NCBI GenBank assembly: GCA_016748015.1
Contig: JAAOMT010000586.1
Coordinates: 124,001-188,000, forward strand
Length of the DNA: 64,000 nt
Source of the DNA: Geosiphon pyriformis uo1
Lineage: Eukaryota > Fungi > Glomeromycota
Direction: 5' to 3'
A program made the translations under genes and the position numbers. Of the stretch, positions 819 through 60,981 are shown piece after piece. How positions within the stretch are numbered: the first letter of the stretch is position 1; the number at the start of each line of letters is the position of its first letter. Under the pieces are notes generated by a model, which saw only the letters and a program-made list of their open reading frames with translations, had not been told where the DNA came from and did not search any database.

Positions 819-1711
819 TGTTACTCATAGAAATATAAGAAATATATTAGCATAATTATTAGCCAATCAGAAGTAAGTGTAGTAAATATAGAATTTCAGG
901 ATTCCTCTCAGGAATTACAAGATTCCAGGAATTTTAGGATTCCCAATGAGGAATTGCAGGATTCCAGAATTGCAGGATTCCTCTCAAAGAAATCACAGAA
1001 TTCCAGGAATTCCAGGATTCCTGTCATGAAGAATCAAGAAATTGAAGAATCCCAATTATGTATATATAGCAGTAGTGTTAGAAACAGAAAAAACAGAATC
1101 GATACCACAGAATCCTTAGCCAAGAAACCAATTATCAAATAAATAATTATTCCATATCTCAATCCACTATTCACTATCAACACTTCATGTTAATAGTAAT
1201 TGCTATTTAACCACGCTGGAACAATAGCTCTTGATCACGGCTATTGACAAGATACTAACAGACCAAATTGCCTTGGCTTATTTTCTTCATTTTCTTTATT
1301 TTTATTTTCTTTATTTTATTTCCTTTCTTTCTTTGATTTTGTTGTTGTATACTAATTGATTAAAAGATTAAGCGCTGAGTTATTAATGTCAAGGATAGCC
1401 TGGTAAAAGACCCAGAAATAAGGGTAAGATTTTATATATATTATTGGATAGCTTACCAGAAGGACATGACTGCCAGACTAAATCTGGCCACCATGCTGAG
1501 AAAGAAATTAGGAAAACCACTTGAAGATACAACCACTATCAACCTTATTGAATCTCTGTTCATTATACAAAGAACTCCACAACAAAAATCTTCAGATCAA
1601 CCAAAACCTTCAGATACCATACCTTCTGCACATTATCTATGAAAGTAGCTTTTGAGCACCAAGTTACGGGTTTGTTATTCAATTCCACAACAGAAATAAT
1701 CACCTATAACA
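819..1711 (+). repeat. 5' LTR of element B
   Basis: TGTTACTCA...CCTATAACA, direct repeat of the 3' LTR, followed by TT+TGG PBS. Confidence 0.95.
861..1070 (+). promoter_or_regulatory. Putative U3 promoter of family A LTR: CCAAT box, GGAATTCC/TTCCAG(G)AA repeat array, TATA-like box
   Basis: AGCCAATCAG 861-870, degenerate 8-9 nt repeats ~890-1040, TATATATAG 1061-1069. Same layout in the other family A LTRs. Confidence 0.55.
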
Positions 1712-1730
1712 TTTGGTGCTCCCTGTGAGG
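1712..1730 (+). promoter_or_regulatory. Primer binding site of element B (TGGTGCTCCCTGTGAGG)
   Basis: 2-nt spacer then TGG, complementary to a tRNA 3' end ...CCUCACAGGGAGCACCA. Resembles elongator tRNA-Met or tRNA-Ile(UAU); identity unverified. Confidence 0.85.
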
Positions 1731-1773: not shown

Positions 1774-4700
1774 GTGGCAGAATCAGAAATTATAGGAGCA
1801 AACCATTTAGAATTCGCAAAATTTTTATTTTAACACTATTGTCAATACTTGGGATTAAACCACAATCATATATCTGCTGAATCAGCCTTCAATTTCTACA
1901 TCAATGAAAAAATTTTCTCTTTATTAGGAACACTAGTGAATATTGAATCAGCAAGAGAAACTTTCTATAAGGAATTAATTCAAAACACCAATCTACCAAC
2001 AAACCATAATTTTGCATTCATCATCACTAAGATCAACAAAGAAATTGAACACCACACTCAACAAAGATATCCAACTACATACACTAGTAAAGGCAAGGGA
2101 AAATTATAAATACCAGCAGTAACACCCAAAAAAATACAGCCACCTGCTTGGAAGAAAAACAGAGTTGAATCCCTAAGCAACCCATTCTACCACTATACAC
2201 CTGGAAGCACCATCAACATATCATCAACAGACGCATTTTCATCAACTGCGACATCAGCATTTGGACAATTTTTATTCCAAAGTAGACAAAGGAAAACAGA
2301 ATTGTTAGGACCATATGGCGAATACTTTGAAGGATTTAATTCGCAATCATCAACCCCATCAGGACTTCAATCACCACCACCTCCACCAGATTTCGGAATC
2401 TCTGATCTGTGGAAAGCAGCAGAATCAGAAAAGGAGGAAGAAAAATCAGAGGATCAAGAATTTACTTACCAGCACCCGATCACTGAAAACCTGGAAGTTG
2501 AAACCCCAAACCTTCAAACTCAGCAACAGTTAGAAAATCCAGAAATCAAAACTCCGAATATTCGAATGCCACCAAATCAAAGAAATCAAAAACCTGAATT
2601 AATTAATCAGCAAAACTTACCTTCAATAATCTTCATCAATCAACTGCCGATTAATTCCATAGCCGCCATACAGCAGCCACTTTAGCTACCACCCCAACAG
2701 CCAGGACAATAACAACTGCTTCAACAGCCACCACAACCACCTAACTTAGATCCAATGGCCTATGCACCAATTGCAAAACTTGACAACTTTATGGGCAAAA
2801 AAGATGACGCTCAAATATGGCTGAATAATGTAGAAAAGGCCATCACAGCCAATAGATGGAATGACACTTGAGTAATGCAAGCCATTCTCTACTTTCTCAA
2901 AGATACTGCCAATTCATGGTACCAGAGCTTGATTAATAAACCACAAGATTTTAATGCCTTCAAAGCGGAATTCCTAAGATACTTCAGCAACAATAACAGC
3001 ATCAATCGCCTAGTTAATACATTCACCACCATGAAACAAGGAGAAACTGAAGCAGTTACCACTTACCTGGGATGCTTCTATTGAAACCTACACCAAATTT
3101 AAGCAATTGATGCCAACTATTTCACAGCACCACAGATACTCAATCAGTTTATCTGTGGCCTGTGCAGTAGCATCTTGCAACATGTACGTCCGTTGCATCC
3201 AGGCACCCTTCAAGATGCAGTCACATGCACCAGAGATTTTGAATCTGCTGAGTCAGAGACTAACTATGCCCAAGCCATTAATCTAGTAATGAACAGATCA
3301 TCTGAATTGGATTCCAAATTGGAGAAGTTCAGTGAATTAATCAATAAGAGATTAGAAGGATACTTAGCTGACAATCATGCCATTTATCAGCCTCCACAAT
3401 GACGCAATAATCAAAGAAACTCTAATTGTGTCCAAAATCAATCACATCCATCTTCATCAACCAATTGACAGTGGCAACAGAAAACGCATATCTGCCACTA
3501 TTGTGGTAAACAAAGACATATCCAAATTGATTGTTGCCAGCGTTTAAATAACCAACGATCAAAAAATCAATATCGAAACCCCGATTGCCAGTTCCAAACT
3601 TTGAATCAGTACCCAAATCAAAACCCACCCACTTACCTACTAGTAACGCAGTCATTAGTCTATCAGTCTCCAGTATATCAACCTCTGATTTATTAGCCGC
3701 AGCCACAAGTAATATATCAACCACAGCCACAAATAATCTATCAACCCCAACAGATCCAAACACTGCCCCAAAGCTTACTACCCAACGGAACTCAAAGACC
3801 GAAAATGACTCAACAGAGCTGGAGATCGGCGATAGTAGTCCATCAACCGATCCCCAGTTCTTCACAGCAATCATCTGGATTATGCCAGCAGAATTTGGGT
3901 ACTGGTCAACTCCAGAACTCGAATTTCCAGAACTATTTAAGTCTTCTGGTCACTCCAGAAGACGCTTTAACCAATAACCCGGCATTTACCCAAAAACAAT
4001 TACTTACCAGTAATATCTTACCCACTACCATCATCGAAGACAAGTCATTGGCTGCTATCTTCTCATTCGAATTTGAGGAAACAGCTGCAATGCCATTATT
4101 TAGTGGAGCCGCTCTTGAAGCCAAACTAATTACCACGATGTACACCAACGCCAAAGTAAAAGGACAATCCATCAAATTAATTCTGGACAGCAGTTCTGCA
4201 GACAGCATAATCACAAGACAACTCATGGATCAATTAGGTTGCCGAGTTGATCAAGCTGCCAGCGCCAGAATCATTACAGCCAATGGAGTGACCAAAACTC
4301 CAATCAGCAAAATCAACGACTTTCCTTTTGAAGTCAATGACATCATGACTCTCATTAAAGTTCTAGTGATGAAAACCACTCAATACCAAGCTCTCGTTGG
4401 TAATGACTGGCTATCCAAAGTCAATGCAACGTTAGACTGGAACACCCAGGAACTCCAGCTAATGTATCAGGGCCAACACATACATGTCTTGGCCATGTGT
4501 GGCCACTTTAAAACTCCTCCAAGAGAGAAACTATTGATCAAACTGGAGGAGAAGAAAGAAAAACCTACCTGAGAAGCCTACCAAGTGTCATGGGCAGACA
4601 AAAAGCACAACAAACTACCGCCAATACTCTCTTGGGATGACAGCAACAAGAGAAAAGGGAAACAGAAGGAAGAACTTATCTGGAAAACTGATGACCTGAC

Positions 4701-7700
4701 ATGGACCGACAATGACAAGAGCAAACCGATGTCAAACTGGGAATGGGAAGAGAACAAAGAAAATAAAGGAAAAGAGAAAGAAGAAGAGACCACCCAAACC
4801 ACAACTATTTATAATACCTACACTATATCACAATAATCTACCTATCGTCGACCTAAGCTTATATGCATTGATTGCAGCAAGAAATTGTCATCAATGGGTG
4901 CATGCTGTGGGGACGATGAGGAATATTCAACGGCAACTAGGTTTTATTGCCACCCATGCGTTCTTGAACACTTTGGAAAACCAAAATGAGTAGGAAAATG
5001 GGACAATCAGCCATGCTTAGCTTGTGAAAAGACTCTCTTGGACGAAAAAATGTGGCATGACATTCCCGGACGGGGAGGAACGTGCAACATAGAGTGTCAA
5101 TACATGATTCTGATCAGCAACTGGATTAAAAAGGGGACACCCATCAAAGCCACTTGGCAAAGAGCAGTGTGACAATTAGACAGTTGTCCACATAACAACG
5201 ACGAAATTTGGAGAATGGCAACTGCCAAAATTGAAGGCATGTTGCCAGAAGAAATCCGGACAATTAAAAACAACCCACCAGAACCCATCAAGCTCAACTG
5301 GGACGCAGAGCCAGTTATAAATTTTCTAAAACCAGAAGAGTTCTATAAACACTACCAAAACTTGGCACCCACTAGAGAAAAGCAAGAACAATGGCTAGCA
5401 CAGTTAAATACAAAACTGTGTTGTCATTGTTTAATTCTCAGTAACTTCAAATATTGTGACGATTGTGACCTTATTTACAATCCACCACCATGCATGATCT
5501 ACTCAATCCTTGAAGAAGAAGAACCAATCAGCAGCTGTGCGTCGGAATCAGAATTGCTGATCAATCGCAATTCAGACTTTGACAATGATGATGAAAACAA
5601 CGGTTCTAGCTCTGTTTAAAATGGCAATGACGACAAAAACAATTCAGACTCAAATTCAAAACCTGATTTAAACTATAAACAATATATTGCACTACCAGAT
5701 CTCTCCAAAGAACAAGAGTTGAAATGATATAGTAACAATGGTGAAGGTATTATGCTAGAATGTATGCATGATATGGATGCAGGGTTTGATCTGAAATATC
5801 CAGGAAAAGTTGCCATCAAATTAGAACTGCATTCACACATCTGCATTGATTTGAAAATAACACTAGAGATTCCGGCAACAACAATAGTTCAATTAGCATT
5901 TAGGAGTAGCTTAGCAAAAAAAGGGATCAATATAAGAGGAGGAATAATTGACATGGGATATGTAGGAAATATCATCACCATGCTACAAAATGATTCAGAA
6001 AAGGCCTATATAATAGAGCCCAATGAAAAGATAGCACAGGCAATATTCTTGCCTCTGATTAGAGTAGCTCAGTTAGTGTCAGTAAGAAAGAGGGAGAAAT
6101 TAGGAATAACAGTAAGAGGGATACAAGGATTCGGATCAACGGGTAGAACAGATGTACTAGTTAATATGGCGAAAGAAGAAATTGTTGGCCAAAGAAAAAT
6201 TATCTCAACTGGTCAAGCTATTTCCATTCCACCATATAGCCAGTACATGTTAACAATAGAAAAGAAGGAAAAGGAGCAAGAACAGATTTTTGAAGCAGAA
6301 GCAACCCTTTGTGAATCAGAAGAGATTGGGTTGATCAATCTCCACATACCAGCCAAAAGCTATAGCAGCATAAAAATTCCCATCTACAACAATACTGACA
6401 ATGTCATCAGCATACCAGAAGGAACTACCATCGGATATTTAACCACAGAAATAGAAGACCAACCACCAAACCTCATTCCAGACTTTCCACAACTTTGTGG
6501 ATATGTTGACATCACATCACAAACAATCTATAAATAAGACGAATGTTATTTGCTCCAACCAGAACAATTGAAACAAATGAACATGGGAAACTTAGATCCA
6601 CTTCAATGTATGCAGCTCAAGATGTTACTCAACAATTTCAATGACATCTTTGCCAGCAAAAATGAGTTTGGCTGAACTGACATCATCCAGCATCAGATCA
6701 AGACTGGAGATGCAATGCCAATCAAACAAAGAGCATACAGAGTACCACCAGCCAGCCACGAGATTATTCATCAAGAAATAAACAGAATGCTTGACAACGG
6801 GCTGATTCAATTATTAATGAGTCCATAGTCATCACCAGTAGTACTCGTTCGAAAGAAAAATAGAAAAATCCAGTTTTGTGTAGACTACAAAAAACTCAAT
6901 GGTGTAACTTGTGGAGACAGTTATCCAACTCCATGAATACAAGAATTATTTGATGCTTTCAGTGGGAACAAATGGTTCTCTACATTAGATTTGGACAGTG
7001 GTTATTGGCAAGTAGCCATGAATCCAGCTGACAAAGAGAAGACAGCATTTACTACTAGAGAAGGGAATTTTGAATTTGAAGTGATGCCATTCGGCTTAAC
7101 CAATGCCCCAGCAACTTTCCAACGGCTAATAGAAATCGTTTATACTGGCTTATTGTAGAAATCAGTAGTTGTATACTTGGACGACACCAATGTATTCTCA
7201 AAGAAGTTTGATGATCATCTTCATCATTTTCAATAAGTGTTCGAAAAACTAAGAAGAGCAGGACTAAAGTTAAATGCAACAAAGTGCTTCTTTGACAAGA
7301 CAGAACTCAAATTCTTGGAACACATAGTCAGCAAAGATGGCATCAAAACAGATCCAGAGAAAATAGAGATAGTAAAAAACTTTCCAGTGCTGACCAATAT
7401 AACAGAACTGAAATCATTCTTGGGATTAACTAGTTATTATTGTCATTTTATCAAAAACTTTTCTAAGATAGCGCAGCCACTCAATCAATTACAAAACAAA
7501 AATGCAAAATATGAATGGACAGAAAGTCAACAAGAAGCTTTTGATATTCTGAGGAAAAAACTCATCCAAGCTCTAGTACTGATCTATCCAGATTACAGCA
7601 AACCATTTATTATCACTACTGATGCATCTGGCCAAGCATTGGGAGCAGTATTATTTCAGAGAGGACCAGACGGCAGAAAACATCCAGTAGCATATGCCAG

Positions 7701-7976
7701 CAGAGGTTTAACACCAGCTGAAAAGAATTATGGAACACCAGAACAAGAACACTTAGCAATATACTGGGCTGTCATGAAATGGAAAGAATACTTGAGCCAG
7801 AAGTTTGAAGTATACACAGATCACAAGAGATTAACATCACTCCAAAAACAAGAATTTTGAGATGAAAGACAGTTAAGATGAAAAATGGCACTTACACTAT
7901 ACAATTATACTATACATTACAAAAAAAAAAAGACAATGGAAATGCTGACAGTTTATTACAAATAAGACAAATCTAA
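1774..7976 (+). pseudogene. gag-pol: Element B ORF1: N-extension, capsid, CCHC, aspartic protease, Cys-rich module, dUTPase, RT, RNase H (one frame, broken by transition stops)
   Basis: Track fragments at 1849, 2302, 2875, 3175, 3805, 4585, 5215, 5752 and 7237 share one frame. Motifs: CHYCGKQRHIQIDC, LILDS(G)S, ALVGNDWL, YLDD (~7173-7185), TDAS, YTDHK, NAD.L..IRQI*. Confidence 0.92.
5752..6150 (+). CDS. dut: dUTPase domain within element B ORF1
   Basis: All five trimeric dUTPase motifs in order: DAGFDL, RSSLA, GGIIDxGYVG, EKIAQ, RGIQGFGSTG. Confidence 0.92.
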
Positions 7977-8039: not shown

Positions 8040-9422
8040 ATGAACATACAAAAATATCAACAATTGCAACATTATCTAAACACTCAACAGTTCAAGGAGA
8101 ATTTATCTCATACGGAATGAAGAAGTATCAAACAACAATCAAAATATTTTATCACTCACCAAAATATACTTTATCGGAAAAATAGAAAGGATTCAGATCA
8201 ACCAACCAGAGTAATTACGGAGCCAGAAAAAGATACAATATTATTCAACATGCACTCAAATCCAACAGCAGGACATTTTCACAAAGAAGCAACCATGGAA
8301 AGAACTAGAAAAAGATACTATTGGCCATCAATGTACCCAGACATCATTCAATATGTTCAAAATTGTGATGCTTGTCAGCGAAGAGGAGAAACAAGATCCA
8401 GTGAACTATTAAGACCAATCAAAGTGAGACAACCATTTGATCGTATGGAAATTGATTTAGTTGGATCATTAACAATCACCAGCAGAGAAAACAGATACAT
8501 AGCAGTAGCTATGAACTATCTCACTAAATGGCCAGAGGCAAAAGCAATTCAAAGAGCAGATGCAGAATCCATTGCCGAATTCGTTCATCAGAATTTGATT
8601 TGTTGACATGGATGTCCAAAAGAATTATTATCAGACCAAGGAACTCATTTTGTGAACAGAACATTAACAGAATTGAGCCAAAGATTCGGAATCAAAAGAC
8701 CATTATCATTACCATACTATCCACAAACCAATGGATTAGTAGAAAGATTCAACCAAACATTGTGTGAAGCAATAGCCAAGCTCAGTCAAGAAAACCAGAA
8801 CAATTGAGATTTGTTCATACCATCAGTACTATTTGCTTATCAGACAATGAAACAGGATACTACACAAGCAACACCATTTGAATTAGTATATGGGAGAATA
8901 GCAATGTTACCAGTAGAAAGAGAAATTAATACATATCCAGCTGAACCAATAACAGAGAAAAATTTTCAAGAAACATTGCTGAAAAGAACATATGACTTAA
9001 TGGAAACATTGGAAAACAAACAAAGAAGAGCAGCTGATAATATCCAAAAGTCACAAAAAACACAGAAAGAAAGACACAATAGTCAACTACCAGACAAACC
9101 AGTTGAATTTAAGATCGGAGACAAAATATTACTACATTGTACCAAAGCAGAAAAACAATGGAGTGGAAAATTTGACCCCAAATGGGATGGACCATTTCAC
9201 ATAGAAAAAATTCTAGGAAATGGAGCTTACAAATTAAGATTGGATAACAAAATTTTAACCAAAGCAGCACATGGAGATCGACTGAAATCATATCACAACA
9301 TCACATTACTATCTACCAGTAATATTCCACAATTAAGAGTACAGAGAATACTAGTCCAACCAGATGAAATTCCATGAGATCTGGAACCAATCATTATTAT
9401 CAACAACAACATGTTAAATTGA
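8040..9422 (+). pseudogene. int: Element B ORF2: stand-alone integrase (HHCC, DDE core, GPF module, no chromodomain)
   Basis: ATG 8040 follows the RNase H stop. MHSNPTAGHF...CDACQ, IDLVG, SDQG, ERFN, WDGPF. Confidence 0.9.
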
Positions 9423-10119: not shown

Positions 10120-10328
10120 TGTTACTCATAGAAATATAGGAAATATATTAGCATAATTATTAGCCAATCAGAAATAAGTGTAGTAAATGTGAAATTCCAG
10201 GATTCCTCTCAGGAATTGCAGAATTTTAAGAATTTCAAGATTCCCAATGAGGAATTGCAGGATTCCAGAATTCCAGGATTTTTCTCAAAGGAATCATAGG
10301 ATTCCAAGAATTCCAGGATTTCTGTCGT

Positions 10329-11060
10329 TGTTACGGGATGGTTTTCTTGTTATATTTAATTGCTGATATCCCGCTTTAATTGCAATCAGTCTTTCGTGAG
10401 TTCCTCAATTCTATTTGTGTGATAATGTCACTGTTACACTGAAGGCTTTCTTTTTACTGTTGCGATGTAAGTTATTCTTTAATTCTTGATTGTTGTGTGT
10501 GTTTATGTACTCCTTCTCAGAGGCTGAACTGAAATCTACCCACTGTCTGGGGTCTTCTCTGAGGCTATCCTTGCAATTGCCTGATGTGTTTCTCTAATCT
10601 AGAAACACAGAATGTTAATGGTCTTTAGCGCTTTTCTAATTCTTACAATAAAGCTTTTATCAATNNNNNNNNNNNNNNNNNNNNNNNNNNNNNNNNNNNN
10701 NNNNNNNNNNNNNNNNNNNNNNNNNNNNNNNNNNNNNNNNNNNNNNNNNNNNNNNNNNNNNNNNNNNNNNNNNNNNNNNNNNNNNNNNNNNNNNNNNNNN
10801 NNNNNNNNNNNNNNNNNNNNNNNNNNNNNNNNNNNNNNNNNNNNNNGAAAATACTTTCTTTTTGATATTTCAACCTGGTGCTTGCTGCTATCACCAGTTG
10901 GTGTTGGCTGCTATTGTGAACTGGTGCTTGCCACTATCGCGAGATGGTGTTTGCTACTATGTTAATCATTACCTTTCTAAGATTATTACTGTGCTATATT
11001 ATGATTGAATAGTTTGTATTATTTTTATGATTCTTTTTGCTAAATTCTTAAACCGTAACA
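10329..11060 (-). mobile_element. Family H LTR insertion (apparent solo LTR spanning an assembly gap), TSD TCGT
   Basis: Reverse complement of 51582-52447; TCGT at 10325-10328 and 11061-11064; N-gap 10665-10846. Confidence 0.9.
10665..10846. other. Assembly gap (182 N)
   Basis: Run of N. Confidence 1.
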
Positions 11061-11779
11061 TCGTGAAGAATCAAGAAATTGAGAAATCCCAATTATGTAT
11101 ATATAGCAGTAATGTTAGAAACAGAAAAGACAGAATTGATATCACAGAATTCTTAGCCAAGAAACCAATCATCAAATAAATAATTATTCCATATCTCAAT
11201 CCATTATTCACTATCAACACTTCATGTTAATAGTAATTGCTACTTAACCACGCTAGAACAATAGCTCTTGATCATGACTATTGACGAGATACTAACAGAC
11301 CAAATTGCCTTGGCTTATTTTCTTTATTTTCTTTATTTTTATTTTTTTTATTTTATTTCCTTTCTTTCTTTGATTTTGTTGTTGTATACTAATTGATTAA
11401 AAGATTAAACACTGAGTTATTGACGTCAAGGATAGCCTGGTAAAAGACCCAGAAATAAAAGTAGGATTTTATATATATTATCAGATAGCTTACTAAAAGG
11501 ACACGACTGCCAGACTAAATCTGGCCATCATGCTGAGAAAAAAATTGGGAAAACCACTTGAGGATACAACCACTATCAATCTTATTGAATCTCTGTCCAT
11601 TATACAAAGAACTCCACAACAAAAACCTTCAGATCAACCAAAACCTTCAGATACCATATCTTCTGTACATCATCCATGAAAGTAGCTTTTGAGCACCAAG
11701 TTACAGGTTTGTTATTCAATTCCACAACAGAAATAATCACCTGTAACATCGATCATGTCTTTATATACTCTTTTGTTGT

Positions 11780-16200: not shown

Positions 16201-19200
16201 TTTTTGGTGGTCATCTATCACATTCAAAGACACATGGACAACAGTAGTACTCAGTTACTGTTGTCCATTCTTTGTTCTTACTACAGCATATGTTCATTGT
16301 TGACAGTTTCTTGTCACAACTGATGCATACAAGTTTGGGTTGACAGTAAGTGTTTTAAAGTGGTGTTGCATATGGAATATGAGTAAAGAAAGTGGTTTGT
16401 TTTGGTTCCTCTTCCTGTTTCTTTCCTTTTCTCTTTTCTTCCCAACTCCATTCAGTGGCTGGTTTGCTTTGGCTGTCATCACTCCATGATCTTTGGTTTG
16501 TTCCCCAGGTAAGTTTTTCTTCTTCTTTCCTCTTTCTTTTGTCATTTCATAAGAGTATGGGTGGCAATTTGTTGTCGTTGTTGGCCCATGAGACTTGGTA
16601 AGCTTCTCAGATAGGCTTCTTTTCTTCTTCTTCCAGCTTTATCAATGGTTTCTCTCTTGACGGAACTTTAAAGTGGCCACATATGGCTGGCACACGTGTG
16701 TATTGACCATTGACACTTAGTTGGAGCTCTTGCATTATCTAGTCTAAAACAGTATTGGTTTTGGACAGCCAGTCATTACCAACTAGAGCTTGGTATTGGA
16801 TGGCTTCCATCATCAAGACTTTGATAAGAGTGATGATGTCATTAACTTTAAATGGAAATTCATCTATCTCGCCAATAGGCATTTTGGTCATTCCATCAGC
16901 TGTGATGATTCTGGCACTGGCAGCGCAATCAACTCAGTGATCTAATTGGTCTATAAGTTGTTGTGTGATAATACTATCTGCTGAACCACTGTCGAGAATC
17001 AATTTGATAGATTGTCTATTGACTTTGGCATCTGTGTACATTATGGTGATTGGTTTGGCTTCAAGAGTGGCTCTACTAAATAATAGCATTGCAGTTGTTT
17101 TCTCAAATTTGAATGGGAAGATAGCAGTCAAGAACTTGTCTTTAGTAATAGTAGCAGGTGGGATATTACTGGTAAGTGATTGTTTTTGGGCAGATTTTGG
17201 GTTATTGGCTAAGGTGTCTTCTGGAGTGATCAGGAGACTTAAATAGTTCTGGGAATTCAGGTTCTGGGGTTGACCAGTATCCAAATTCTGCTGGTGTAAT
17301 TCAGATGGTTGCTGTGAAGAACTGGGGATCGGCTGATGGACTACCATCACCGATCTCCAGCTTTGTTGAGCCATTCTCAGTCTTTGTGTTCTGTTGGATG
17401 GTAAGTTTTGGGGCAGTGTTTGAATTTGTTGGGGTTGATAGATTATTGGTGGCTGTGATTGTTGATAAATTACTTATAGCTGCAGTTAATAAATTGGAGC
17501 TTGATATACCAGAGGCTGATAAATTGATTGCTGCGTCATTGGTACATAATGAGGTAAGTGTTGGTATTGTTTTTGATTTTGCTGGGAACTCGAAGCTGGG
17601 AACTGGTAATCGAAGTTTTGATATTGATTTCCTGATTGTTGGTTATTTAAATGCTGGCAGCAATTGACTTGTATGTGTTCTTATTTACCACAATAGTGGC
17701 AAACACGTGTTTCTTGTTGCCACTGTTGATTGGCCGAAAATAATGGACGTGACTGATTTTGGATGCAATTAGAGTTTCTCTGATTGTTGCATTGTTGTGG
17801 TGGTTGATAGATTGTTCGATTGTCAGCTAAGTATTCCTCTAATTTTTGATTAATGAAATCACTGAATTGTTTTAATTTAGAATCCAATTCAGATGATCCA
17901 TTTATTACTAGATTAATGGCTTGGGCATGGTTAACTTTGAGTTCAGCTACTTCAAAATCTCTGGCGTTAGTGACAGCTACTTGTAAATCTGCTGGGTGTA
18001 GTGGACGTACGCACTGGAGAATACTATTGCATAAGCCTCTGATAAACTGATTTAAAATTTGGGCCACTGTAAAATAATCAGTATTGATAGCTTGGATCTG
18101 GCACAAGCATTTATGGAATCGTCCCAAGTATGTGGTAACGGCTTCAGTATCCCCTTGTTTGATGATAGTAAAAGTATTTACCAAACGGTTGATACTGTTA
18201 TTATTACTGAAATATCTTAGGAACTCCTGCTTAAATATGTTGAATGTTTGAGGTTTTGTAGCTAAGCTTTGATACCACAAATTCGCGGTATCTTGGAAGA
18301 AATATGGGATTGCCTGAAGAGCTCTGTTGTCATTCCAATTGTTTGCTGTAATTGCTTTGGCAACGTCATTCAATCAAGCTTGAGCATCATTCTCTTCACC
18401 GGTGAATTTTTCTAATTTGGTGATTGGTGCATAGGCCATCAGTACTATAGGTTACTGGGGCTGTTGAAGTGGTTGTTGTATGGGTTTGGTTATTGAATTA
18501 ATTGGCAATTGATTGATGATGATTACTGGAGGTAAGTTTTGCTGATTAATTAATTTGGGATTTGGATTGTTCTGCCTTTGATGATTTGGAGTTTCTATTT
18601 CCAAATTTTCTAGATTTAGATTTTGCTGAGTTTAAAGATTCGGGGTTTTAACTTCCAGGTTTTCAGTGATTGGGTTTTGGTAAGTAAATTCTTGATCTTC
18701 CGATTCTTTTTCCTCTTCTTCTTCAAATAGTTCCCATAGGATAGCAGTTCCAAAGTCCAGTTGAGGCAGTGGTGATCAAATTCCTAATAGTGTTGGTGAT
18801 TATGATTTAAATCTTTCAAAATATTTGCCGTATGGTCCTAATAACTCTGTTTTCTTTTGTTTACTTTGGAATAGAAATCATCCAAATGTTGATGTCACAT
18901 TTGATGTGGACACGCTTGTTGATGTTATATTGATGGCACTTTCCAGTGTGTAGTAATAGGATGGGGCAGTTGGTAATTCAACTCTTGTTTTCTTCCAAGT
19001 GAGTGGTTGTATCTTTTTGGGTGTTACTGCTGATGTTTGTAGTTTTCCTTTGCCTTTACTGGCATAAGTAATTGGATACTTTTGTTGGGTGTGATGTTCA
19101 ATTTCTTTGTTGATTTCAGTAATAATGGAGGCAAAATTGTAATTTGTTGGTAGGTTGGTATTTTGAATTAATTCTCTGTAGAAAGTTTCCCTGGCTGCTT

Positions 19201-19372
19201 TAGTATTCACTGGTGTTCCTAACAAAGAGGAAATTTTTTTGTTGACATAGAAATTAAAGACTGATTTGGCAGATATATGATTGTGATTTAATCCCAAGTG
19301 TTGATAATAATGTTGAAATAGAGATTTCACAAATTCTAAATGGTTTGTTCCTATGTTTTCTGATTCTGCCAC
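13224..19372 (-). pseudogene. gag-pol: Element A ORF1 gag-PR-Cys module-dUTPase-RT-RH
   Basis: Fragments 18878..19372, 17681..18373 (capsid, VCHYCGK), 16934..17374 (LILDSGS), 14627..15430 (dUTPase), 13616..14167 (YLDD); ends ADGLSRIRQI* at 13224. Confidence 0.92.
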
Positions 19373-25559: not shown

Positions 25560-26554
25560 TATTACTCATAAAATGTAGGAATTATATATTAATATACAAA
25601 TTAACCAATCAAAATAAGATGCAGTAAAAGTGAAATTTCAGAATTCCTCTTAGAAAAATTACAGAATTCCAAGAATTCCAGAATTCTTGACTAAAAAATT
25701 AAAGAATTTAAGAAATCTTATATAACAAAATTTATATATATATAGTGGTAGTAATAGAAGCAGAAAAAACAAAATCTTTTGAGTAAAAATTTTTAGTTTA
25801 GAATTCAGTTTCAATTTCCCATTTATCTCTTTATGTGATAGTATTCTATGACTTAAAGTGAAAGCATTAAATATAAATAAAATACTTATTAACACATTAC
25901 AATCTATCTTTTCACTATTAACAACTTATGTTAATAGTTACTAATACTTAACTACACTGAACCAATAGCTCTTGATTACACCTATTAATAGAATACTAAC
26001 TTTTTTTTTTGTCTTAACTTATTTCTTTCTTTTCTTTTCTTTTCTTTCTTTTTTTTGTTTTGTTTTGTTTATTATTTACTAATTGATTAAAAATTAAAAG
26101 TGTGGAGTTATCAACATCAAAGAAACTGATAAAAAACCCAAAAATAAGAATAGAACACTTATTATTAAGAATAACTTACCAGAAGAATTACCAGTTATCA
26201 TGCTGAAAAAAAATTTGACAGAATTGCAATTCTAAGAAGCTATAAGGAAAACAACACTTAAATTTCTGTTTATTATACAAAGAACTTCAACAAAAGAAAC
26301 TTTCAGATCACAAAAACTTTTAGATACCAACACTATTGTACTAATTGAATATCAAGTTATGAATTTGTTATTGTTTTCAGACCCTAAATAATTATCTGTA
26401 ATATTTGGTGCTTTCTATAAGGTATAATCCTACAGAGAACTAGTACCAACAACAATTATTCAAAAGTGGCAGAATTAGAAAGAAGAAAAACAAATCATCT
26501 AAGATTTACCAAATCCTTATTTCAATACTACTATTAACACTTGAAATTAACCAG

Positions 26555-27525
26555 TATTATGAAGCAACTAGATAGAGTATGGTAATAATGTTTGGTACTC
26601 TAGTTTTGGATTATCTTTCAAAATTGTCTGTTTTTTCTGCTGTGTCAGTGTTATTAGTCTCTGAAAGTCTATTCCTGGCTGTGAATTTACCCATTGAGTT
26701 CTTTGGTTATAAGGCACAGAGTTTGTCTTTCGTCAATTACAACATTTTTCGTAAATGTAAGCTTTCTTCTTCATATTAACAAGTGCAGTTATTAGGATCT
26801 AACATTGTCTTTTCACCCTTCTGGTAAGCTACCAAGGTAATGTTAATATCTAGAACTTAAGAGAAGCTTCCCTCTTTTACCAGGCTATCACAAAATCTAT
26901 TCCAAGACAGTCAATTTTCTTATGTTGCCGCTCCAAAAAAAAAAAAAAAGAATTAGTTTTCATTAATTACCATGATCAAGAGTGATTGGTCCTAATTGTT
27001 TTTAAGGGTTTGAGGCATTTATGTCAATGACATCTGTCCCAGAACAAAAGTAGGAAATACTGATTTCAATTTCAGTTAAAATTTGTAAGATTAGAGAACA
27101 TAAATTGGTGAATTGGATTTGGTTTTGATAATTTATTGTATTTCAGACTATGGATATATGATAAGTATACTACAAAATAAAATTGATTCTTTACTAACTG
27201 TTTTTTTATCTATTACAATTACTTGCTTTTATACTTTCTTTTGGTTTTATAGGATTGCTTCTGATTGTTTTGTTATTGCTAACTATTGCTTTGTTATTTC
27301 TGTTATTGCTTTTCTCTTCTATGTTATTACTAGTTATTTTACATTATAACACATTATCTGGTATTATTACATGTTATTTTGTGTTATTTTGCATTATAAC
27401 ACATTATCCTGCACTATTCTAAGTTATAATATGTTATCCAACATTATTGCACACTATTTTGTACTATGTTATATTCTGGTCATATTACTTCCTAACTTCA
27501 GATTGGTTTTTTTACTCAGGTAACA
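26555..27525 (-). repeat. 3' LTR of element F
   Basis: Direct repeat of 36567-37550; contains degenerate TATAACA-type tandem repeats at ~27340-27480. Confidence 0.93.
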
Positions 27526-32700: not shown

Positions 32701-35700
32701 TAACAACAATAATGTTTCCCATATATCTAGCATCGATAATTTCTCTTTTTATGTTAATTTTTTTCTTTACAAGGCTTAATCTAGATGCTACTTGTACCAT
32801 GGTACTAACAGGAATTTCTAGCATTATTTTGAGATCTATTTTTACCAGGGAATGTGGGGCTATAACTATGAATGATTGTTCAGGGTATTTTAAGTCAAAA
32901 CCTGCATCGGTCTTGTGTGTTTTTTCTGGGCATATTCCTTTGTCATTGTCACTATACCACTTTAATTCTAATTCTTTGGAGAGATTGGGATACACAAGAT
33001 ATTGTTCTATTTTAGTAGTCTGATTTAGTTCTTAAAATAATATGTCTTTTGCAAGTAATTCCTCTTTTTCCTCAGGCTTAAGTAATTTGGTGATTGGGTA
33101 TAGGATTCTGGGAGGCGGGTTAAACATGAGATTACATTCATTGCAGTATTGAAAGTGGCAAGGAATTAAGCAGTGATCACATAGTTTGGTATTTAGATCA
33201 ACTAGCTGCTGTTCTTGCTTTTCTTGGATCAGGACCAATTCTTGATATCAGTTCTGAAATGCATTGAAGTCATTTGTGAAGAAATCCTCCATGGGGTAGT
33301 TGGGTCCATTATATTTGGGTGTTCAAGGGTTGTCCTTGATTTTTCGTATTTCTTTGGGCATGGCACCTTCAACTTTGGCACTTGCCATTCTCCAAATTTT
33401 GTGATTATCATATGGATAGCTGTCCAGCTTATTGAGTGTTTGTTTCCAAGCATTCTCAATGGGGATTCTCTTTCATACTCAATCATTGATTAATATGGTG
33501 TATTGACAAGCCTTGTTACATGTTTTTTCTCTGCCAAGTACATTATTCCAGAGTCTTTTATCGGGCAGGATCTTGCCACATGCAAGACATGGCATGTTGT
33601 CTCACTTGCCTTGTTATTTCAGTCATCCAAATTTTTTTAGTAAACAAGGTCTGCAGTAGTATTTGGTGGTGGTGGACTATTTTTTATTATCTCCAATACA
33701 TGCACTCATTGTGGATAGCTTTTTTCCACAATTGACACATATTAGTTTTGGAGATTGGTAAAATAAATTTTTTTGATCCAAGATTACATATTCTAATGAT
33801 GACAATTGGAGTTTTTCTTTGGCTCTGTCTTTTCCTTTTTCTTTCCAGGTTGGTGGTAGAAATAGTTTAGTTCAATAATCGTCCACCCATGAAACCTAAT
33901 AGATTTTGATGGTTGGTGGTAGCAGTGTGTCTTCGAATTCAATTAAGAGTTCCTCAATAGGTTGGGTTTTGAAGTGTCTGCATATAGCTGGAACTCAGGC
34001 ATACTGTTTGTTAAATGTGAGTTGAAGTTCTTGGGTGTTCCAGTCAAGTATAGCATTGGCTTTTGACAACCAATCATTTTCTACCAGAGCTTGATATTGA
34101 GTAGCTTTCATAATGAGTATCTTGGTAGGGATCTGAATCCCATTAATCTCAAAGGAGAAGTTGTCAATTTCTTCTATTAGAGTTTTTGTGTTTTCATTTG
34201 CTGTAATAATCCAGATAATAGTAATATGGTCTACTTAGTGACCTAATTGATCCATGAGTTGCTTTATAATTATGCTACTGGCTGATCCACTATTCAGGAT
34301 TAATTTAATGCCTATTTTTTTGACTCTGGTATCAGTGTATAGAGCCATTATTGGTTTATCCTGATTGATGGCTGCTCCACTAAAAAAACTATGGGTGTTC
34401 AAATTATTGATGTCAAAAAAAAAGATGGTGGCTAGGATGGTGTCCTCGGTAATAATGGCTGGTGGGATGTTGCTTTTTATTTGCTTGGAAGGTTGGAAGA
34501 TTTGTTCTACATTCCTCTCTTCCATAGGTATAGATTTATCAAAATCCTGGTCTTCCATGAGACTGAAATAGGAAGCTTAATTCAGGTATCCAGTTGGTGC
34601 TGGTCAAAATTGGGCAGGACCACAAGAAATTGGTTGAAATGGTCTACTGTTGGGTTGTGTCTGATTGTTGTTGGGAGTCCTCCATCCTTGATTATAGTCT
34701 ATGGCTCGAGGTTTGGGCTGGCTGTAAGGAAGAATTTGATAGCAAGAGATTTTTTATGTCATTAGTGATAGTTGATAATAATTCCAGAGCAGTGGTTGAA
34801 TGTACGGGATTTGTTGTGTATACTGGGGTGATTGATTTTAAGGTATAGAATATTGAGATATTATGTTTTGCTAATATTTTGGTTGCTGGTATTGGTTTCC
34901 TTGAGTTTGGTCCATCATTTTTTTTCTGCAGTCATGGACAATGTGTTCAGATTTCTGGCAGTAGTAATAGTTGTGAGGATTGGATCTCCAAGGTTGTTGC
35001 TATTGTTGATGGTTCTGTTGTTGTGAGTATTTGCTGTTGTTGTTATTTTTTCTTTGTTGTGGCAGTTGGTAAGTTTCTGTGATTCTGGCTAAGAATCCCT
35101 CAATTTTCTGAGTTAATTTCTCACTTAATTGGGTTATCTTTGTGTCGATGTCAGAGGTTTTATTGATGGCTAAATTTACATCTTAGGTATGGTTTGTTTC
35201 TTGTTTTGTGGATTCAAAATCACAAGCAAAAGTGACTGCTTCTTGTAGGTTTGCTAGATGGCAAGGTTATATGGGTCTTAGGAGACTGCTCCTTAGTTTT
35301 TTAACAAATTGATTGAGAATTTGTGTGGTGGTATAATAATTCTGCTCAATGGCTAGGATTTGTCAAAGGACCTGATTGAATCTTCCAAGATAAGTAGTTA
35401 CTACTTCATGGTCATTTTATTTTATTATACTGAATTGATTTTGCAATCAGATGAGTGTATTAGGGTCACAGAAGTATTGCAAAAATATGAGTTTAAACTT
35501 TGTAAAGGAGGTAGGTTTCTCTGCAAGACTCTGATACCATGAATTGGTGGTTCTGGTCAGAAAAAATGACAGTGTCTGAATTGTGTGGTCATTGTCCCAA
35601 CTATTAGCAGTAATTGCTTTCTCAGCATCCGTGATCCAAGAATATGTGTTATCTTCTTTACCAGAGAATTTCTCCAATTTAGCAATATCCTGGTAAGCCA

Positions 35701-36505
35701 TGATTCAGTTAATGGGTGGGGTGTTACTGGTTACATTTAAGGAGATTGGTGTTTGTGTATTCGAGTGTTCTCTGAGTGCTAATGCTAGTTGCTTTCCTTT
35801 GTTATTTGAACCAATAAATTGTAAGATAGCTGTTCCTTCCATTAGGAGAAATGCTGATTCTGCTGGATTTTGTGCTGGTGGTTGTTCCCAAGTTGATGTG
35901 TTTCCTTCTGTTTGACTGGCTATTGGGATAAGATTTCCAAACAGTGATTTGTATTCTTTTAGTGATTTGGTTTAACTTTGTTGATCCCAAGGGTGTAAAT
36001 TTTTAGGAGTTCATGGTGTTTCTGACTGGGTTTCTGGGGATGGATTAAATACAATTCTATTTTGGAATGTCTGATAATATGATGAAGTTGTTGGGGAGAG
36101 GAACTTTGGTTTTTTGTTGACTGTGAACTTGTCTTAAGCAGTTGTAAGATTATTGAATCTATTCTCATATTCCTCTAAATTGGATTCTACTGGTTGTTGT
36201 ACTTGAGGGAATTATTTTATTATGTAGTGTTTAATGTCTGTATTGACTATGCATAGAGTTTCAGTAATTGCTCAAGTAGTAGTAGTTGTTAAGTATCCTA
36301 GTAAGCTTTGATAAATTTGTTTTTCAAGTCTTTCTATATCAATTGCGTGGCCTAACAAGCAGTTGATTTTTGCATTAATATAGTTGTAAAAATCATTTTC
36401 TGCAATGGTGGTTTCTGCTGGTATTCCTAGATCTTTTCAAAAGTATTGAAATAGTGCTTTTTCATATGAGAAGTGGTCCTTTCCTATTGTTCTAATAGTT
36501 ACCAC
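29732..36505 (-). pseudogene. gag-pol: Element F ORF1 gag-PR-Cys module-dUTPase-RT-RH (dUTPase split by a solo LTR)
   Basis: MAYQDIAKLEKF capsid start 35701; LILNSGS; DAGFDL (32678..32995) continued by KIAQ/GFGSS (31103..31728); RT fragments 30191-30900. Confidence 0.9.
31729..32705 (+). mobile_element. Solo LTR, family A, TSD ACAA
   Basis: TATTACTCATAG...CCTGTAACA; ACAA at 31725-31728 and 32706-32709; removal restores dUTPase GNIIVILQN. Confidence 0.95.
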
Positions 36506-45946: not shown

Positions 45947-46028
45947 TTTGGTGAACCTTACGAGGGAAGAAAATCAAAAAAGAAATAATAATTAGCAATA
46001 ATTCATTGCTAAAAAGAAAGAGATAAAA

Positions 46029-49000
46029 GTGGTGACAAAAACTCTTAATCTTACTATTTTTGAATTCTGCCATGCTATTTACACACAAAATCAAAGTGAT
46101 CTTGGATTACCAGAAGGGTGTTGTCCAGCAAAATCTGCTCTCATTTATTATATCAATGCCAGAATAAATTATCATATAGGAAAGGAAGAAGAACCACATG
46201 ATGCAAAACTTGGATTGTATAGAGAATTATTACAATACACTACAAAGAAAGTAGCAGTAATAGCCGCAACTATTGTCAAAATCCATCAAGAAATTGAGCA
46301 ATACGCCAACAAAAATTTTCTAATATCCACAGGAAACACTAGAGAATGTGCCAACAAAACCAAAGAAAATTTAGAAACTAATCAGGAAAGTAACCAGCAA
46401 AAACTAGGAACACCTGCTCAAATACCCAAAAAAACTGTCACTTAATCAATAAAAAAACAATGTATTTATTTACCAGAAGATAAATCATATCATTTTTTAC
46501 CAGAAAATAAGATACAAATTCCATTAGGAGCTGCATTATTATCAACATCAACTCCACAAACGCCAAGAACTCCTAGTTATACTGATAAAATTAAACAATG
46601 TAACTGGAAAGACATACCAATTACAAGAGGATATTTATCGCTATTCCAAAACCCTCTTTTTCAGCCAAAATTTGAAATGGGGTTTGAAAACCGTGAAGAG
46701 AAGTCTGAATCAGAATCTGAAAAAAAGACCAGCAAAAAAACAATCACAAGACTGGTCACTGAAACAAGCAGCCAGTCTAGAAACCAAGAAACTTGTGATT
46801 AAGAAGAAGAACTGGATATAAGAGAAGCCACTTTTAAGAATGCTCAAGGAAATATCATCCCACTTTCTCTTAGACCAATAAGCCCATCAGCAGAAAATGG
46901 CAACAAAATGGCCACACTATACATTGCAAGACTAACAGATTTCTCAGAAGAGGAAGAAGAAACAGACATGTATATGTGGCTCAGAGAAGTGCAAAAAGCC
47001 ATTTAGGCAAATAACTGAAATGACCAAAGAGCAATTTAAACATTACTTTTCTTTCTGAAAGACAGAGCCGACTTGTGGTATCAAAGTCTGGAAACAAAAC
47101 CCACGAGCTTCACCAAATTTAAAAATGCACTCCTGGAGTATTTTAGTGACCCAAACGTCATAATCCAATTACAGAATGAATTCAATACTATCAAGCAAGG
47201 TACTGGTAAAACTGTCACCCAATACTTTGCTCGATTCAATTGAATTTGCTATCAGATTAAAGTGATTGAACAAGGATACTACACTAATTCTCAGATTTTA
47301 AATCAGTTTATTAGAGGATTAAAAAGCAGTATTTTAGGAAGAGTATGCCCTGCCCACCCTAATTCCTTATCAGAAGCCGTTACGCTTGCCAAAGCCCTTG
47401 AATCAGCTAAGAAAGAAGCTAACCATAGTCAAATAGTTAATATGGTAATGGAGAAAAATAAGACAGAAACATTAGAAAAAAGAATAATACAATTAGGAGA
47501 GAAACTCTCTAAGAAAATAGAAAGTTACCTCATCTTAGATCCAAAAAAAATACATACCAACCATCCCAAAGATGTAGCCAGGAAGTCAGCAACAGTTAAA
47601 ATAATTGCTTGTCATGCCAGAAATTCAGAACAGAAATGCACATCTGCCATTTTTGCAAATGCGTAGGACATTTGATTAGTCAATGTTGAATATGAATAAT
47701 GCAGGAAGCATGCAAAAATAATTATTATGTGCCACCCCAAATGTCCAGAAACCAGTACATGCCAATACTATGCTAATATCTCACCATGTATCAAAATCAA
47801 GGAACTTACTAGCAACAGCCCATGATAGCCAACCCGAATTGGCATTCTGAGCCCTGAAATCAGCCCATGTGGAACCAGAATGTGTTGGTCCAGAGGAATT
47901 CAAACCACACTAGAACCAGTCAGTAAACCAATCTAAACTACCAAAATTATCAACAAACTTACCTTAATATACCAGAAAATCTGATCATCAAAAACAATGA
48001 CGGTTGAAACATAAACAAAACCAAAAATTTCTCCAACAAATTGAGCCAAACAATACTATCAGCAGTTGTCACTGAAGATAGCAGCCTCATAGCTATTTTT
48101 TCTTTTGAATTAGAGGAAAATGAGGCTATGTTCAGTGGAGCAGCATTGGACAGAAAATGCCCAATCACTGTTATGTATATGGAAGCCACTGTAAACAATA
48201 CTCCAATCAAACTTATCTTAGATAGTGGATCCGCTAAAAGCATTATAACACTTCAACTAGTAAACCAACTGGGTTTCAAAGTTGATTATGCTGCGACGTC
48301 CCAAATCATAACAGCTGATAGAAATACAAAGCTGCCTCATGGCAAAATTGACTCATTTTCTTTCAAAATTAATGGCATAGTAATATCTACAAAAGTATTA
48401 GTAATAGACATTACATAATATCAAGTATTAATAAAGAATAACTGGCTAACAAAAGCCAACACCACCCTAAACTAGACCACCCAAGAGCTTTTGATCAATT
48501 ATAATGGCCACTAGACCAGAATTCCAGCCACTTGTGGCCACTTTCAAAAACCTAACACCAACTAAAGACCTACCTTCAAATTTGAAAAAAATCCAGCACT
48601 ATCAGCCATTGAAACCTATCAGCTCTCTTGGGCTAATGACCAAAAAACAGGACTACCAGCCATACCAATATGGACCAGTAAAGAAAGATCTGAATGGAAC
48701 CAGATAAGTCCACAAAAAAACCACCAGTGATGCAGACCAAAGCTAGAATGCTCGGTTTGCAAGAAGAAACTCTCATCTATGACTGCATGCAGCATACCAG
48801 ACAAAGACCCAAGAAACCCCATTCACTACTATTATAACCATTGTAACAAAGAAAAATACAGTTACCCAAAAAGACATAAAAAATGGGACAAGGAATTGTG
48901 CCTTGCTTGTGAAGAACCATTACCAAGAGGGTACAACTGGAACAACATACTAGACAGAGAAAGAATATGTGACACAACTTGCCAATACATGATTCTCATC

Positions 49001-53740: not shown

Positions 53741-53862
53741 TATAAGAGATTTGAAAATAAAAGAAAATTATTTTTGGTGTATGGGTTTTTATGTTATTTT
53801 TGTTTTGTTTTTGTGAGATTGTTTCTAAATTATAAGAAGATAACTATAATAATAAATTTAAA

Positions 53863-55245: not shown

Positions 55246-55285
55246 TGTTTGTTGTTTTGTTGTTGTTAATTCAAATGAGTGTTGG

Positions 55286-58200: not shown

Positions 58201-60936
58201 AACAAGTATAATTTTTATATTCTTCTTCAGATGAAATGCAGGCTCTCATTGAGAAGAATTTCTTGTGACAGTCCTTGCATTTGAGTGGAATGTAGGGGCG
58301 TTGTTTTCATGGTTCTGGTTTTGAATAGGGAACATTCTATCCAGTTGTCACTGGTTTTTTTGTTTCAAGAGAATTATTTGTTGAAAAGTACTGTTGTTTA
58401 GTTTTATTGGCCCAATTGGAGGTTGATCCAAGTGCCATAAATGTTTCAATAATGGGCTTTTCTTCTTCCAGTTCGAATTCAAAAGCCAGGGCTTTTTCGG
58501 AGCGTTTGTTGAATGTACCACAAGTGGCAGATACCCAGGTGTGTTGTTTTTGGTAGGAGATTGTTAACTCTTGTGTTTCCCAATTCAGATTAGCATTGGC
58601 TTTTTGAAGCCAATCATTTCCAATGAGAGCTTGATACTGGGGTGCATCTATTACAAGAATTTTGACTGGAATGGTGATTCCATCAAAAGTGAATGAAAAA
58701 TTGTCAATTTCTCCTACTGGAGTCTTTTTCATCCCATCGGCAGTAACAATTACTGTTTAAGCTGGTCAGTCAACATTTCTCTTTAACTGTTGCATTAACT
58801 GGTAGGTAATGATGCTTCTGGCAGATCCACTGTTTAGAATTAAGCAAATTGCCTTTCCTTCGACTTCTGCTTTAGTGTACATAGCAGTGATTGCTTTTTG
58901 TTCATTGGCAGCTGCATTGCTAGAAATGGCGACTCATTTGCTTCAAACTCAAAAGGAAATATGTCTAAAAGGTTGGCGTTTTCAGCAATTCTGGCTGGTG
59001 GGATTGTGGTAGGAGTATAGAAAAGGTTTTGTTGTCATGCTGCAGCTCTACCTTCTGAGAATGCAGTATAGTCAAAATCCTGTTCTTCAGGTATTGTAAG
59101 ATAGCTAGATTGAGTAGAATAATGGGTGGGTTTTGGCTAAGCTGGATTTCTGGGAACTAATTAGTTGTTCAAATTGATTCTATTGTTATTTACTTGGTAT
59201 CAGTTTTGTGGTGTAAATTGATTTTGTGGAATTAATCTTCGAGCAGGCACTTGATAATATTGTGTGGGTGGTTGTTGGTATTGCTGTTGAATTGGCTGTA
59301 GGGCAGGCTGATAATAGTTACTTTGATATTGGGGTTTTGGTGGATAGTAAACTGATGGTAGTGGTTGATAATAAAATTGCTGTGGTAAAGGGTAACGTTG
59401 ATTACTTCTATTTTGTTGGTTTTGTTGTAGCTTTCTGCAATTTCTTTTCCAGTGACTAGGAATTCCACAGTAATGGCAACTCTGAGGCTGGTTATTAAAG
59501 GATGATGTGAAGTTGTTTTGATTCTGTCTTTGGGGTGGTTAATATCTTTGGGGTTGCTGTTGTTGTTGGTTGGTAAAATAGTTTTCGATTTTCTTTGTAA
59601 GTTGGTCAATTTTCTCTTCAGCTGCTGAGTTAGTCTCTCCAATGGCTAAGTTCACAAGCTTTGTACTATTGGCTTCTTTCATGGCCATTTCATATCTCTT
59701 TGTATGCTGAATGACAGAGTTTAAATTTTCTGGGGCATGTGGGTGAACTTTTTTAATCAGTTTATCTTTTAAACCAGCAATAAATTGATCCAGAATTTGA
59801 GCATCAGAATAATAATCATTAGTTTTAAGTTGGTGAATTTGTCTGAGAAGTTTGTTGAATTTCCCAATATAAGTCATAACAGATTTGGAGGGTTCTTGTT
59901 TAATATTGCGAAAATGATTTTGAAGTGTGATTGAGGTGTTGTTATCGGTAAATTGTTCTAAGAAGGCAGTTTTGAAAGCTGTCCAGTCATTAAAAGGGGT
60001 GGTCAAGTTTTCAAACCATTTGCCTACTGTTCCTTTGAGAAAGTAAGGAATTGTTCTTAACATTCTGGCAGCATTCCATCCATTTGTATCTCCAGCTTTA
60101 GTAACTTGGTTGAGCCATTCTTGGGGACTGGTCTCAATATCTTCTTCATTAAATTCAGGAATTTTTGCAATATAAGCTGTCATTTTGTCTTCTTTCTTGT
60201 TATCTGTTAATTCACTTTCTTCTTCGGATTCTACTTTTTCTTCAATGAATTCAGAAATGTTTTCTTCATTGGCTAATGTTTCAGAGTGTTTGCTTGTGTT
60301 TTCTGCTAAATAGTCAAGAAAATTGGTACTAGTCTGAAGGGTTTCTTGTTGTCTGGTGAGACTTCTGGGTAATGTATAATCTTCTAGTCTTGAAAATCGA
60401 TTTAAAAGTAAATTAGGAGTTTCTACTTGTGCAAGTGAAGCTAGAAAAGATGTAATAGTGAGTGGAAGTTTTGAATTGGTTCTTTGTTCAGGTGTTTGTA
60501 AGTATTTGGCAGTTGTTTTTGGTAGTATTGGAGTATTTAGGGTGGTTTTTGAGTATTGCCTCAATATTTGTTTGCCTTTGTTGCTTGTTTTTGTCTCTGA
60601 TTCAAAGTCAAAAGAGTATTTAGACTGTACTGGGTATTTTTCTTCACAGTACTCAATAATGTTAAAATTAAGTTCTTAGAAGTAGGTAGCAAGTGTTTCA
60701 CTGTTCAGGTTTTCTGTTCCCAATTGTGAATAATGCACTAAATTATTGTAGAGGTTGCTTCTAACTTCTGAAATGTTGTAGTTTCCAAAAATATAATTGT
60801 TGATGCAGTTTTCAATGTATTGGTATACTGATTTTTTGACAATTTCAATTCCGTCTGGAATGTTGAATTTTTGCTTGCAGTGTGTATAAATTGACTGGTA
60901 ATACTCTAGAGTTACTGTGTCTGGTGTGGTTGCCAC
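55286..60936 (-). pseudogene. gag-pol: Element I ORF1 gag-PR-Cys module-dUTPase-RT-RH
   Basis: 60676..60936, 59539..60564 capsid, 58337..58732 protease, 57368..57742 DAGYDL, RT YFDD ~56085-56096; ends DCLSRMRQD*. Confidence 0.92.
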
Positions 60937-60981
60937 TTTGAATTTGTTGTTGCTGTGTTATTTCCATGGGAGAGCACCAAA

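Follow-up and report, generated by a model that had tools for sequence, protein, structure and literature searches.

The question raised by this locus is where the translation of gag begins and whether a single RNA could give rise to two forms of Gag. The window, a stretch of 64,000 nucleotides from Geosiphon pyriformis, is a nest of decayed Ty3/Gypsy LTR retrotransposons. The gag frame opens at AAAGTGG in six copies (A, B, E, F, H and I). A preliminary description had read this GTG as the start of a long Gag and a conserved ATG at the capsid as the start of a short one. The analysis supports that reading, in which both products are predicted from the sequence.

Elements in the window and their relatives

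The domains found with Pfam follow the Ty3/Gypsy order (gag, protease, RT, RNase H and integrase). The LTRs end in TG...CA and a PBS lies behind the 5' LTR, as in Ty3/Gypsy-type elements. Retrotrans_gag is above the Pfam cut-off in all five read-through gag frames, and Ty3_capsid is matched in four of the five, in three of them above the cut-off. All six AAAGTGG sites are found where the preliminary description had placed them, the one in E (26466) on the + strand. The copies had been counted as 6/6, but they are not independent; they represent four families, with A, B and E belonging to one, and E is cut by element F about 30 codons past its GTG. In most of the family comparisons made, F, H and I share 20-29% identity with the other families over the first 105-115 residues. 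The positions of the features are given in Table 1.

Table 1. Features of the gag region, leader and pol domains in the window.
Feature	Position	Strand	Basis
5' LTR of B, TG...CA, long U5	819..1711	+	matches to other LTR copies and alignment
TATA-like box in the LTR of B	1061-1069	+	sequence; putative role
AATAAA in the LTR of B	1138-1143	+	sequence; putative role
7-codon uORF in U5, weak context, sole ATG kept in all A/B/E LTR copies	1187..1210	+	6/6 aligned LTR copies
PBS of B, with an in-frame TGA 16 codons before the GTG	1714..1730	+	
Candidate GTG start of B gag, context AAA GTG GCA	1774..1776	+	
N-terminal helical domain (predicted), about 105 residues, common to four families	1774..2090	+	alignment; model of the element A copy
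Low-complexity in-frame linker of B, AUG-poor	2091..2754	+	
Conserved ATG of B at the capsid, where the Ty3 capsid domain has its N-terminal edge	2755..2757	+	
Protease, element B	3697-4569		Pfam
dUTPase, element B	5728-6534		Pfam
RNase H, element B	7237-7857		Pfam
Integrase zinc finger, element B	8121-8603		Pfam
Element A, GTG (19372) to capsid ATG (18439)	18437..19372	-	
Element E, GTG (26466), truncated by the 3' LTR of element F	26466..26556	+	
Element F, GTG (36505) to capsid ATG (35701)	35699..36505	-	
Element H, GTG (46029) to capsid ATG (46908)	46029..46910	+	
RVT_1, element H	50416-51243		Pfam
Element I, GTG (60936) to capsid ATG (60183)	60181..60936	-	

The named relatives of the gag N-terminus are, among the matches listed (120, 120 and 118), all hypothetical proteins of G. 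pyriformis, and one of them is identical to element A across 44% of the query. Related loci gave no match in viral contigs, searched with the gag alignment and with RT, and none in metagenome contigs. All named relatives of these gags come from one species, in the genome of which LTR sequences make up 41.2% (PMC11952901).

The elements are nested at 45068-63110, where I is inserted in H and the RNase H and integrase of H resume at 61957. The 3' LTR of I is in turn split by a solo LTR of the H type (51578-52447), which shares 99-100% identity with pieces of LTR located at 10326-11064 around an N gap. The PBS of H (45949-45965) is unlike that of A, B, E, F and I; the GTG context is nonetheless the same. 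No tRNA gene was found within the 64-kb window. A dUTPase domain is located between protease and RT in B, in A (14630-15454) and at 31106-31816; this placement of the domain is known from other fungal Gypsy elements (PMC2864245). Element B has a single frame for gag and pol through RNase H (1774-7857). Stops at 3694, 4570, 4834 and 5725 are common to B and A and could reflect decay or a read-through site. Since gag and pol share one frame in B, both starts might also yield a polyprotein.

A GTG codon at the opening of gag

As claimed earlier, no in-frame ATG lies between the PBS and the GTG in the copies examined. Element I has an out-of-frame ATG at -31, inside the PBS; the gene models read R, W or Q at this position, which suggests a CGG that has decayed. 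That AAAGTGG is overrepresented in the window (24 against 12.6) is no evidence by itself, since only six of the sites follow a PBS.

The state of the codon was followed by mapping 460 gene-model proteins onto each window copy and counting residues per column. Val occupies the GTG position in 276 of 309 gene models across the genome, the others having Met (22), Leu (9) or Ile (2). Val is found in 114 of 133 models for family I, 103 of 113 for A/B, 42 of 45 for H and 17 of 18 for F, and in 255 of the 258 models that read through from the preceding Lys. The family state at the start is thus GTG, and not ATG. The minor residue is Met at this column and mostly Ile at other Val columns; with Met as the minor residue, the codon fits a GTG that decays by G>A. 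Gene callers prefer ATG, so their bias would oppose the Val result. GTG makes up 31 of the 192 Val codons in the frames of the window, and the probability that all four families would share it by chance is about 7e-4. The following residue is mostly Ala in all four families. In the start context AAA GTG GC the base at -3 is A and that at +4 is G; both positions are kept constant at a conserved fungal non-AUG start (PMC5487733). A stable hairpin after the GUG is absent in 6/6 copies.

A spliced upstream exon could provide an AUG instead, either by an in-frame join before Lys-Val or through a split codon A|TG at AAG|TG, and is considered quite unlikely. The sequence AG|TG is present in all six copies with CAG or TAG 14-35 nt upstream, and automated gene models enter the frame via such sites, a few of them with Leu or Met joins. 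A branch-site match is nevertheless absent within 60 nt in 6/6 copies, the share of pyrimidines is 0.32-0.44, AGs compete and the position of the acceptor varies by family. The LTR alignments, inspected by eye, have no common upstream peptide or donor, and an ordinary AUG start would leave the AUG-free interval without a reason.

The interval between the GTG and the capsid

Similarity between the families begins in the alignment at the GTG codon and spans about 105 residues, and the peptides upstream of the GTG differ between families. In-frame stops are found 8-16 codons upstream of the GTG in the six copies. The stop of A/B/E falls inside the PBS; that of I may be a product of decay, as the gene models read through the PBS. 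The interval of 251-327 codons between the two starts is coding, as indels keep the frame, stops occur at Gln, Arg or Trp columns and the N-terminal domain is predicted to fold. A and B differ by six indels over this stretch, each a multiple of three in length. The 19 stops in five intervals are without exception at Gln, Arg or Trp columns, one of these columns being only two deep.

The N-terminal domain of element A was modelled with AlphaFold2 from 44 sequences as a compact, helical structure (mean pLDDT 86.4, pTM 0.80). It is followed by a low-complexity linker of 146-222 residues, with 51-55% P/Q/S/T/N/E in five copies. Searched against PDB and viral structures, the domain has no fold match at E<=0.001, and the best comparison (Z 6.6, rmsd 4.7, 109 aligned) is within background. 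No retroviral matrix entry is among the best 50 matches listed per fold search, a result that does not by itself make the fold a new one, and a search of the ESM Atlas yielded no match at 0.9 or more. A profile search with the domain gave 203 matches at E<=0.001. Among the best 150 of these 203, 114 are new; all fit a window family, nine of them at <55% identity, and the ten profile matches looked up are all from G. pyriformis.

Myristoylation at Gly2 or a net basic surface are features of retroviral matrix. Residue 2 is mostly Ala in these domains, and the first 105 residues contain 6-11 K+R against 8-12 D+E, so neither feature is present. A membrane anchor is also absent, the highest 19-residue hydropathy being 0.87-1.17 in five copies.

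The capsid ATG

The ATGs proposed as second starts, at 2755, 35701, 46908 and 60183, were located and are in frame with the GTG. The distance from GTG to capsid ATG is 327 codons in B, 268 in F, 293 in H, 251 in I and 311 in A. Met is the top residue at the capsid start in all four families and appears mostly with Ile as its decay product (62 Met and 16 Ile in the B column, 40 and 8, and 27 and 4); in family I the 25 Met are counted with some alignment slippage. In B this Met is residue 328, and position 9 of the Pfam Ty3_capsid profile is at residue 331. The Met is thus about three residues before the match to the profile, and would therefore sit where a plain Ty3-type Gag begins. The capsid ATG is preceded by A at -3 in the families of F, H and I, and by C in A and B.

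Shortage of AUG between the two starts

The ATG counts of the preliminary description are exact, with three in B and one in I between the starts in any frame and nine in B at 2755-2879, the start included. The corresponding counts are 5 in A, 8 in F and 10 in H. Dinucleotide shuffles give an expectation of 11.6 for B (P 0.002), 13.7 for A and 7.5 for I (0/1000 shuffles as low in either case), 15.1 for H (P 0.044, marginal) and 9.3 for F (P 0.37); pooled, 27 ATGs are observed against 57 expected. The depletion that had been asserted is accordingly strong in A, B and I and marginal in H, but not present in the raw sequence of F. The density of ATG in the downstream gag-pol is 18-22 per kb.

The interval ATGs are found at columns with a CpG-decay pattern in 24 of 27 cases, the pattern being defined as Thr/Met, Arg/Cys/His, or, in the codon that follows, about 24-50% G>A. 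The remaining three comprise two that are private to copy F and one in A that is GTG in B. The heavier decay suggested for F and H is supported, as such columns hold 10/10 of the ATGs in H and 6/8 in F. For B, two of the ATGs had been ascribed to decay; the number was too low, since all three look derived. The background of G>A after purine-ending interval codons is high (median 0.19 against 0.35 at NAY|G sites), and single decay sites are therefore not certain.

Founder-like ATGs, called by one rule in both regions with thresholds of our own on automated gene models, occur in 0 of 1076 interval columns and number 20 in the 797 columns that run downstream from the capsid (P=3e-8). The interval and downstream values are 0/289 and 2/230 for A/B, 0/263 and 1/144 for F, 0/291 and 4/212 for H, and 0/233 and 13/211 for I. 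Family I thus contributes 13 of the 20 downstream ATGs, and without it P=0.002. A normal AUG density in the interval, which would have spoken against the earlier reading, is not what these counts show. A direct comparison of A and B, made without gene models, gives no shared ATG in 909 aligned nt of the interval, where 12 CAT are shared, and 4 in 600, 8 in 1239 and 56 in 4055 nt downstream, the last of these being pol. The 527 aligned nt from the U5 uORF to the GTG likewise hold no ATG common to A and B. As far as the homolog columns show, the founders would have had no AUG in any frame of the interval.

A further alternative, in which decay turned an ATG into the GTG or a Val codon stands there by chance, and low-complexity composition accounts for the AUG shortage, is extremely unlikely. 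All copies are decayed, Met is found at the start in a minority of gene models and F is not depleted in raw counts, yet decay proceeds by C>T and G>A and would turn GTG into ATG, not the reverse. The agreement of four families, the fact that shuffles keep composition and the absence of CAT depletion also speak against this explanation, which is largely refuted by the shuffles, the gene-model columns and the founder-ATG and A/B comparisons.

The GUG start could be real and the capsid-first form still come from a shorter internal transcript or from internal ribosome entry, or the capsid Met could merely be a conserved internal residue. Ty1 is a precedent, having a truncated Gag from an internally started RNA (PMC5408680). 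This alternative is nevertheless unlikely, as an internal transcript would leave unexplained why all three frames lack AUG over the whole interval up to the capsid ATG, and why AUG is also missing from the 527 aligned nt before the GTG. A leaky GUG would in any case send scanning ribosomes on to the capsid AUG.

The leader

Measured from the TATA-like box, the leader ahead of the GTG has a length of 643-764 nt. The ATGs conserved in the LTRs amount to one 7-codon uORF in A/B/E, two short uORFs in H, six in F, a number that rests on two copies only, and none in I. Because short uORFs occur in the leaders of A/B, H and F (640-760 nt), simple scanning would depend on leakage past them or on reinitiation.

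Ribosomes could thus also be brought to the GUG by shunting or by reinitiation after the short U5 uORF, as happens in plant pararetroviruses, and then leak to the capsid AUG, a variant of leaky scanning that is judged very unlikely. The mark of such a shunt is a 5' uORF that ends ahead of a large leader stem-loop. The 7-codon uORF, besides being kept in 6/6 A/B/E copies, is found in the two H copies that cover it, about 492 nt before the GTG in the H LTR, and ends about 12 nt ahead of a small hairpin; in A the AUG is within a small stem. The uORF of rice tungro bacilliform virus (RTBV) likewise has 7 codons (PMC5902531). Family I, however, has no conserved uORF, the hairpin, about 530 nt away from the GTG, is a small one, and the U5 past the uORF is without a shared AUG, which suits scanning.

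Proposed translation of gag

From one RNA, leaky scanning probably yields two products, a long Gag begun at the GUG in minor amount and, as the major form, a capsid Gag begun at the AUG. As a near-cognate start GUG ranks among the better ones, but AUG is far stronger (PMC5666671). Initiation at the GUG, by a minority of ribosomes, would produce the long Gag, with the predicted helical domain of about 105 residues and the linker. The remaining ribosomes would scan the interval, which was probably purged of AUG, and start at the capsid AUG; by the rules of translation, a leaky GUG should let most scanning ribosomes reach this codon, the first AUG met. Out-of-frame AUGs would be harmless to ribosomes begun at the GUG, so their removal would serve the delivery of scanning ribosomes to the capsid AUG. 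The long form may, speculatively, co-assemble as a minor component of the particle, and our guess is that the N-terminal domain could target or regulate the particle.

Comparison with known systems

In MLV glyco-Gag a longer Gag is started at a CUG from an upstream in-frame position, and the extension holds a membrane anchor. The analogy drawn earlier with glyco-Gag holds for the in-frame, non-AUG start of a longer Gag; the Geosiphon elements differ in having GUG in place of CUG and an extension without an anchor. RTBV is a closer analogue because the extension has no hydrophobic anchor.

In RTBV and the badnaviruses (Caulimoviridae) the genomic RNA of a reverse-transcribing element likewise has a non-AUG first start, followed by about 900 AUG-free nt (PMC5902531). 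For RTBV, an AUU start used by about 10% of ribosomes together with 900 AUG-free nt has been shown experimentally, and a capsid-bearing ORF begun at a downstream AUG and a short 5' uORF are further likenesses (PMC5902531). The sequence signature of this type of leaky scanning, a non-AUG start and then a long AUG-free stretch, is present in the Geosiphon elements. RTBV is described as differing in that the AUU is reached after a ribosome shunt and in having separate ORFs I, II and III (PMC5902531). Separate consecutive ORFs are not found here, the GTG and the capsid ATG being in one frame; the GUG would open the frame of the capsid itself and give nested isoforms, in a fungal LTR retrotransposon.

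PEG10 also combines an in-frame non-AUG start with a downstream AUG in a Gag-like protein, both being used experimentally, but its CUG is only 102 nt (34 aa) upstream and it is a domesticated mammalian gene (PMC2800197). The starts of the Geosiphon elements are 750-980 nt apart, with a whole domain between them, and the elements are multi-copy. Ty1 p22 resembles the proposed short form as a shorter Gag from an internal AUG in a fungal LTR element; it is described as the C-terminal half of Gag, made from a separate internal RNA, Ty1i, and restricting mobility (PMC5408680), whereas the short form of the Geosiphon elements would be a whole, capsid-first Gag. Filamentous fungi have conserved non-AUG N-terminal extensions with A at -3 and G at +4 (PMC5487733). 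Neurospora cpc-1 is alike in its conserved near-cognate starts, the same two context positions and long N-terminal extensions, but is described as a host transcription factor with several near-cognate starts, and not as part of a mobile element (PMC5487733).

The single ingredients are thus already known: CUG and AUG starts in PEG10, a long AUG-free scan in RTBV and a CUG start in glyco-Gag. A literature search, in which subscription papers were sparsely covered, found no report of such a start in an autonomous Ty3/Gypsy element or in these families. Rather doubtfully, a clade of autonomous fungal Ty3/Gypsy elements may have converged on a pararetrovirus strategy. The low ratio of long to short Gag would then be fixed by the GUG start together with some 1.3-1.5 kb of AUG-purged RNA, and the N-terminal helical domain, of undescribed fold, would be exposed on the particle for targeting and so replace retroviral matrix in function.

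Retrotransposon gag is annotated from the first ATG, so that gene callers miss this architecture; public gene models come to the frame via many different predicted upstream exons. If the proposed translation is correct, a mobile Ty3/Gypsy lineage sets the ratio of its Gag isoforms by leakage at a start codon, what lies upstream of the capsid is a candidate for a new Gag domain, and an early-diverging fungus has a long natural substrate for leaky scanning. Reading the absence of AUG via CpG-decay signatures across copies is applicable to other repeat families.

Other features of the LTRs

The U5 hairpin has a stem of 8-9 bp and a 9-nt loop made up of 2 nt, a 6-nt palindrome and 1 nt, a layout reminiscent of the HIV-1 dimerisation loop. 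It is located at 1222-1246 (+) in the 5' LTR of B, 52075-52099 (+) in the H-type solo LTR and 52485-52511 (-) in the 3' LTR of I. The palindrome is UGAUCA in A/B and H and UAGCUA in I, the stem sequence varies by family, and F carries the same palindrome by eye. Of seven segments folded, three gave the hairpin (z -1.4, -0.2 and -5.4); the remainder were off-centre or decayed. The U3 of B at 860-1050, like other copies of the LTR, has a CCAAT box followed by tandem GAATTCC/GGATTCC repeats that resemble heat-shock elements.
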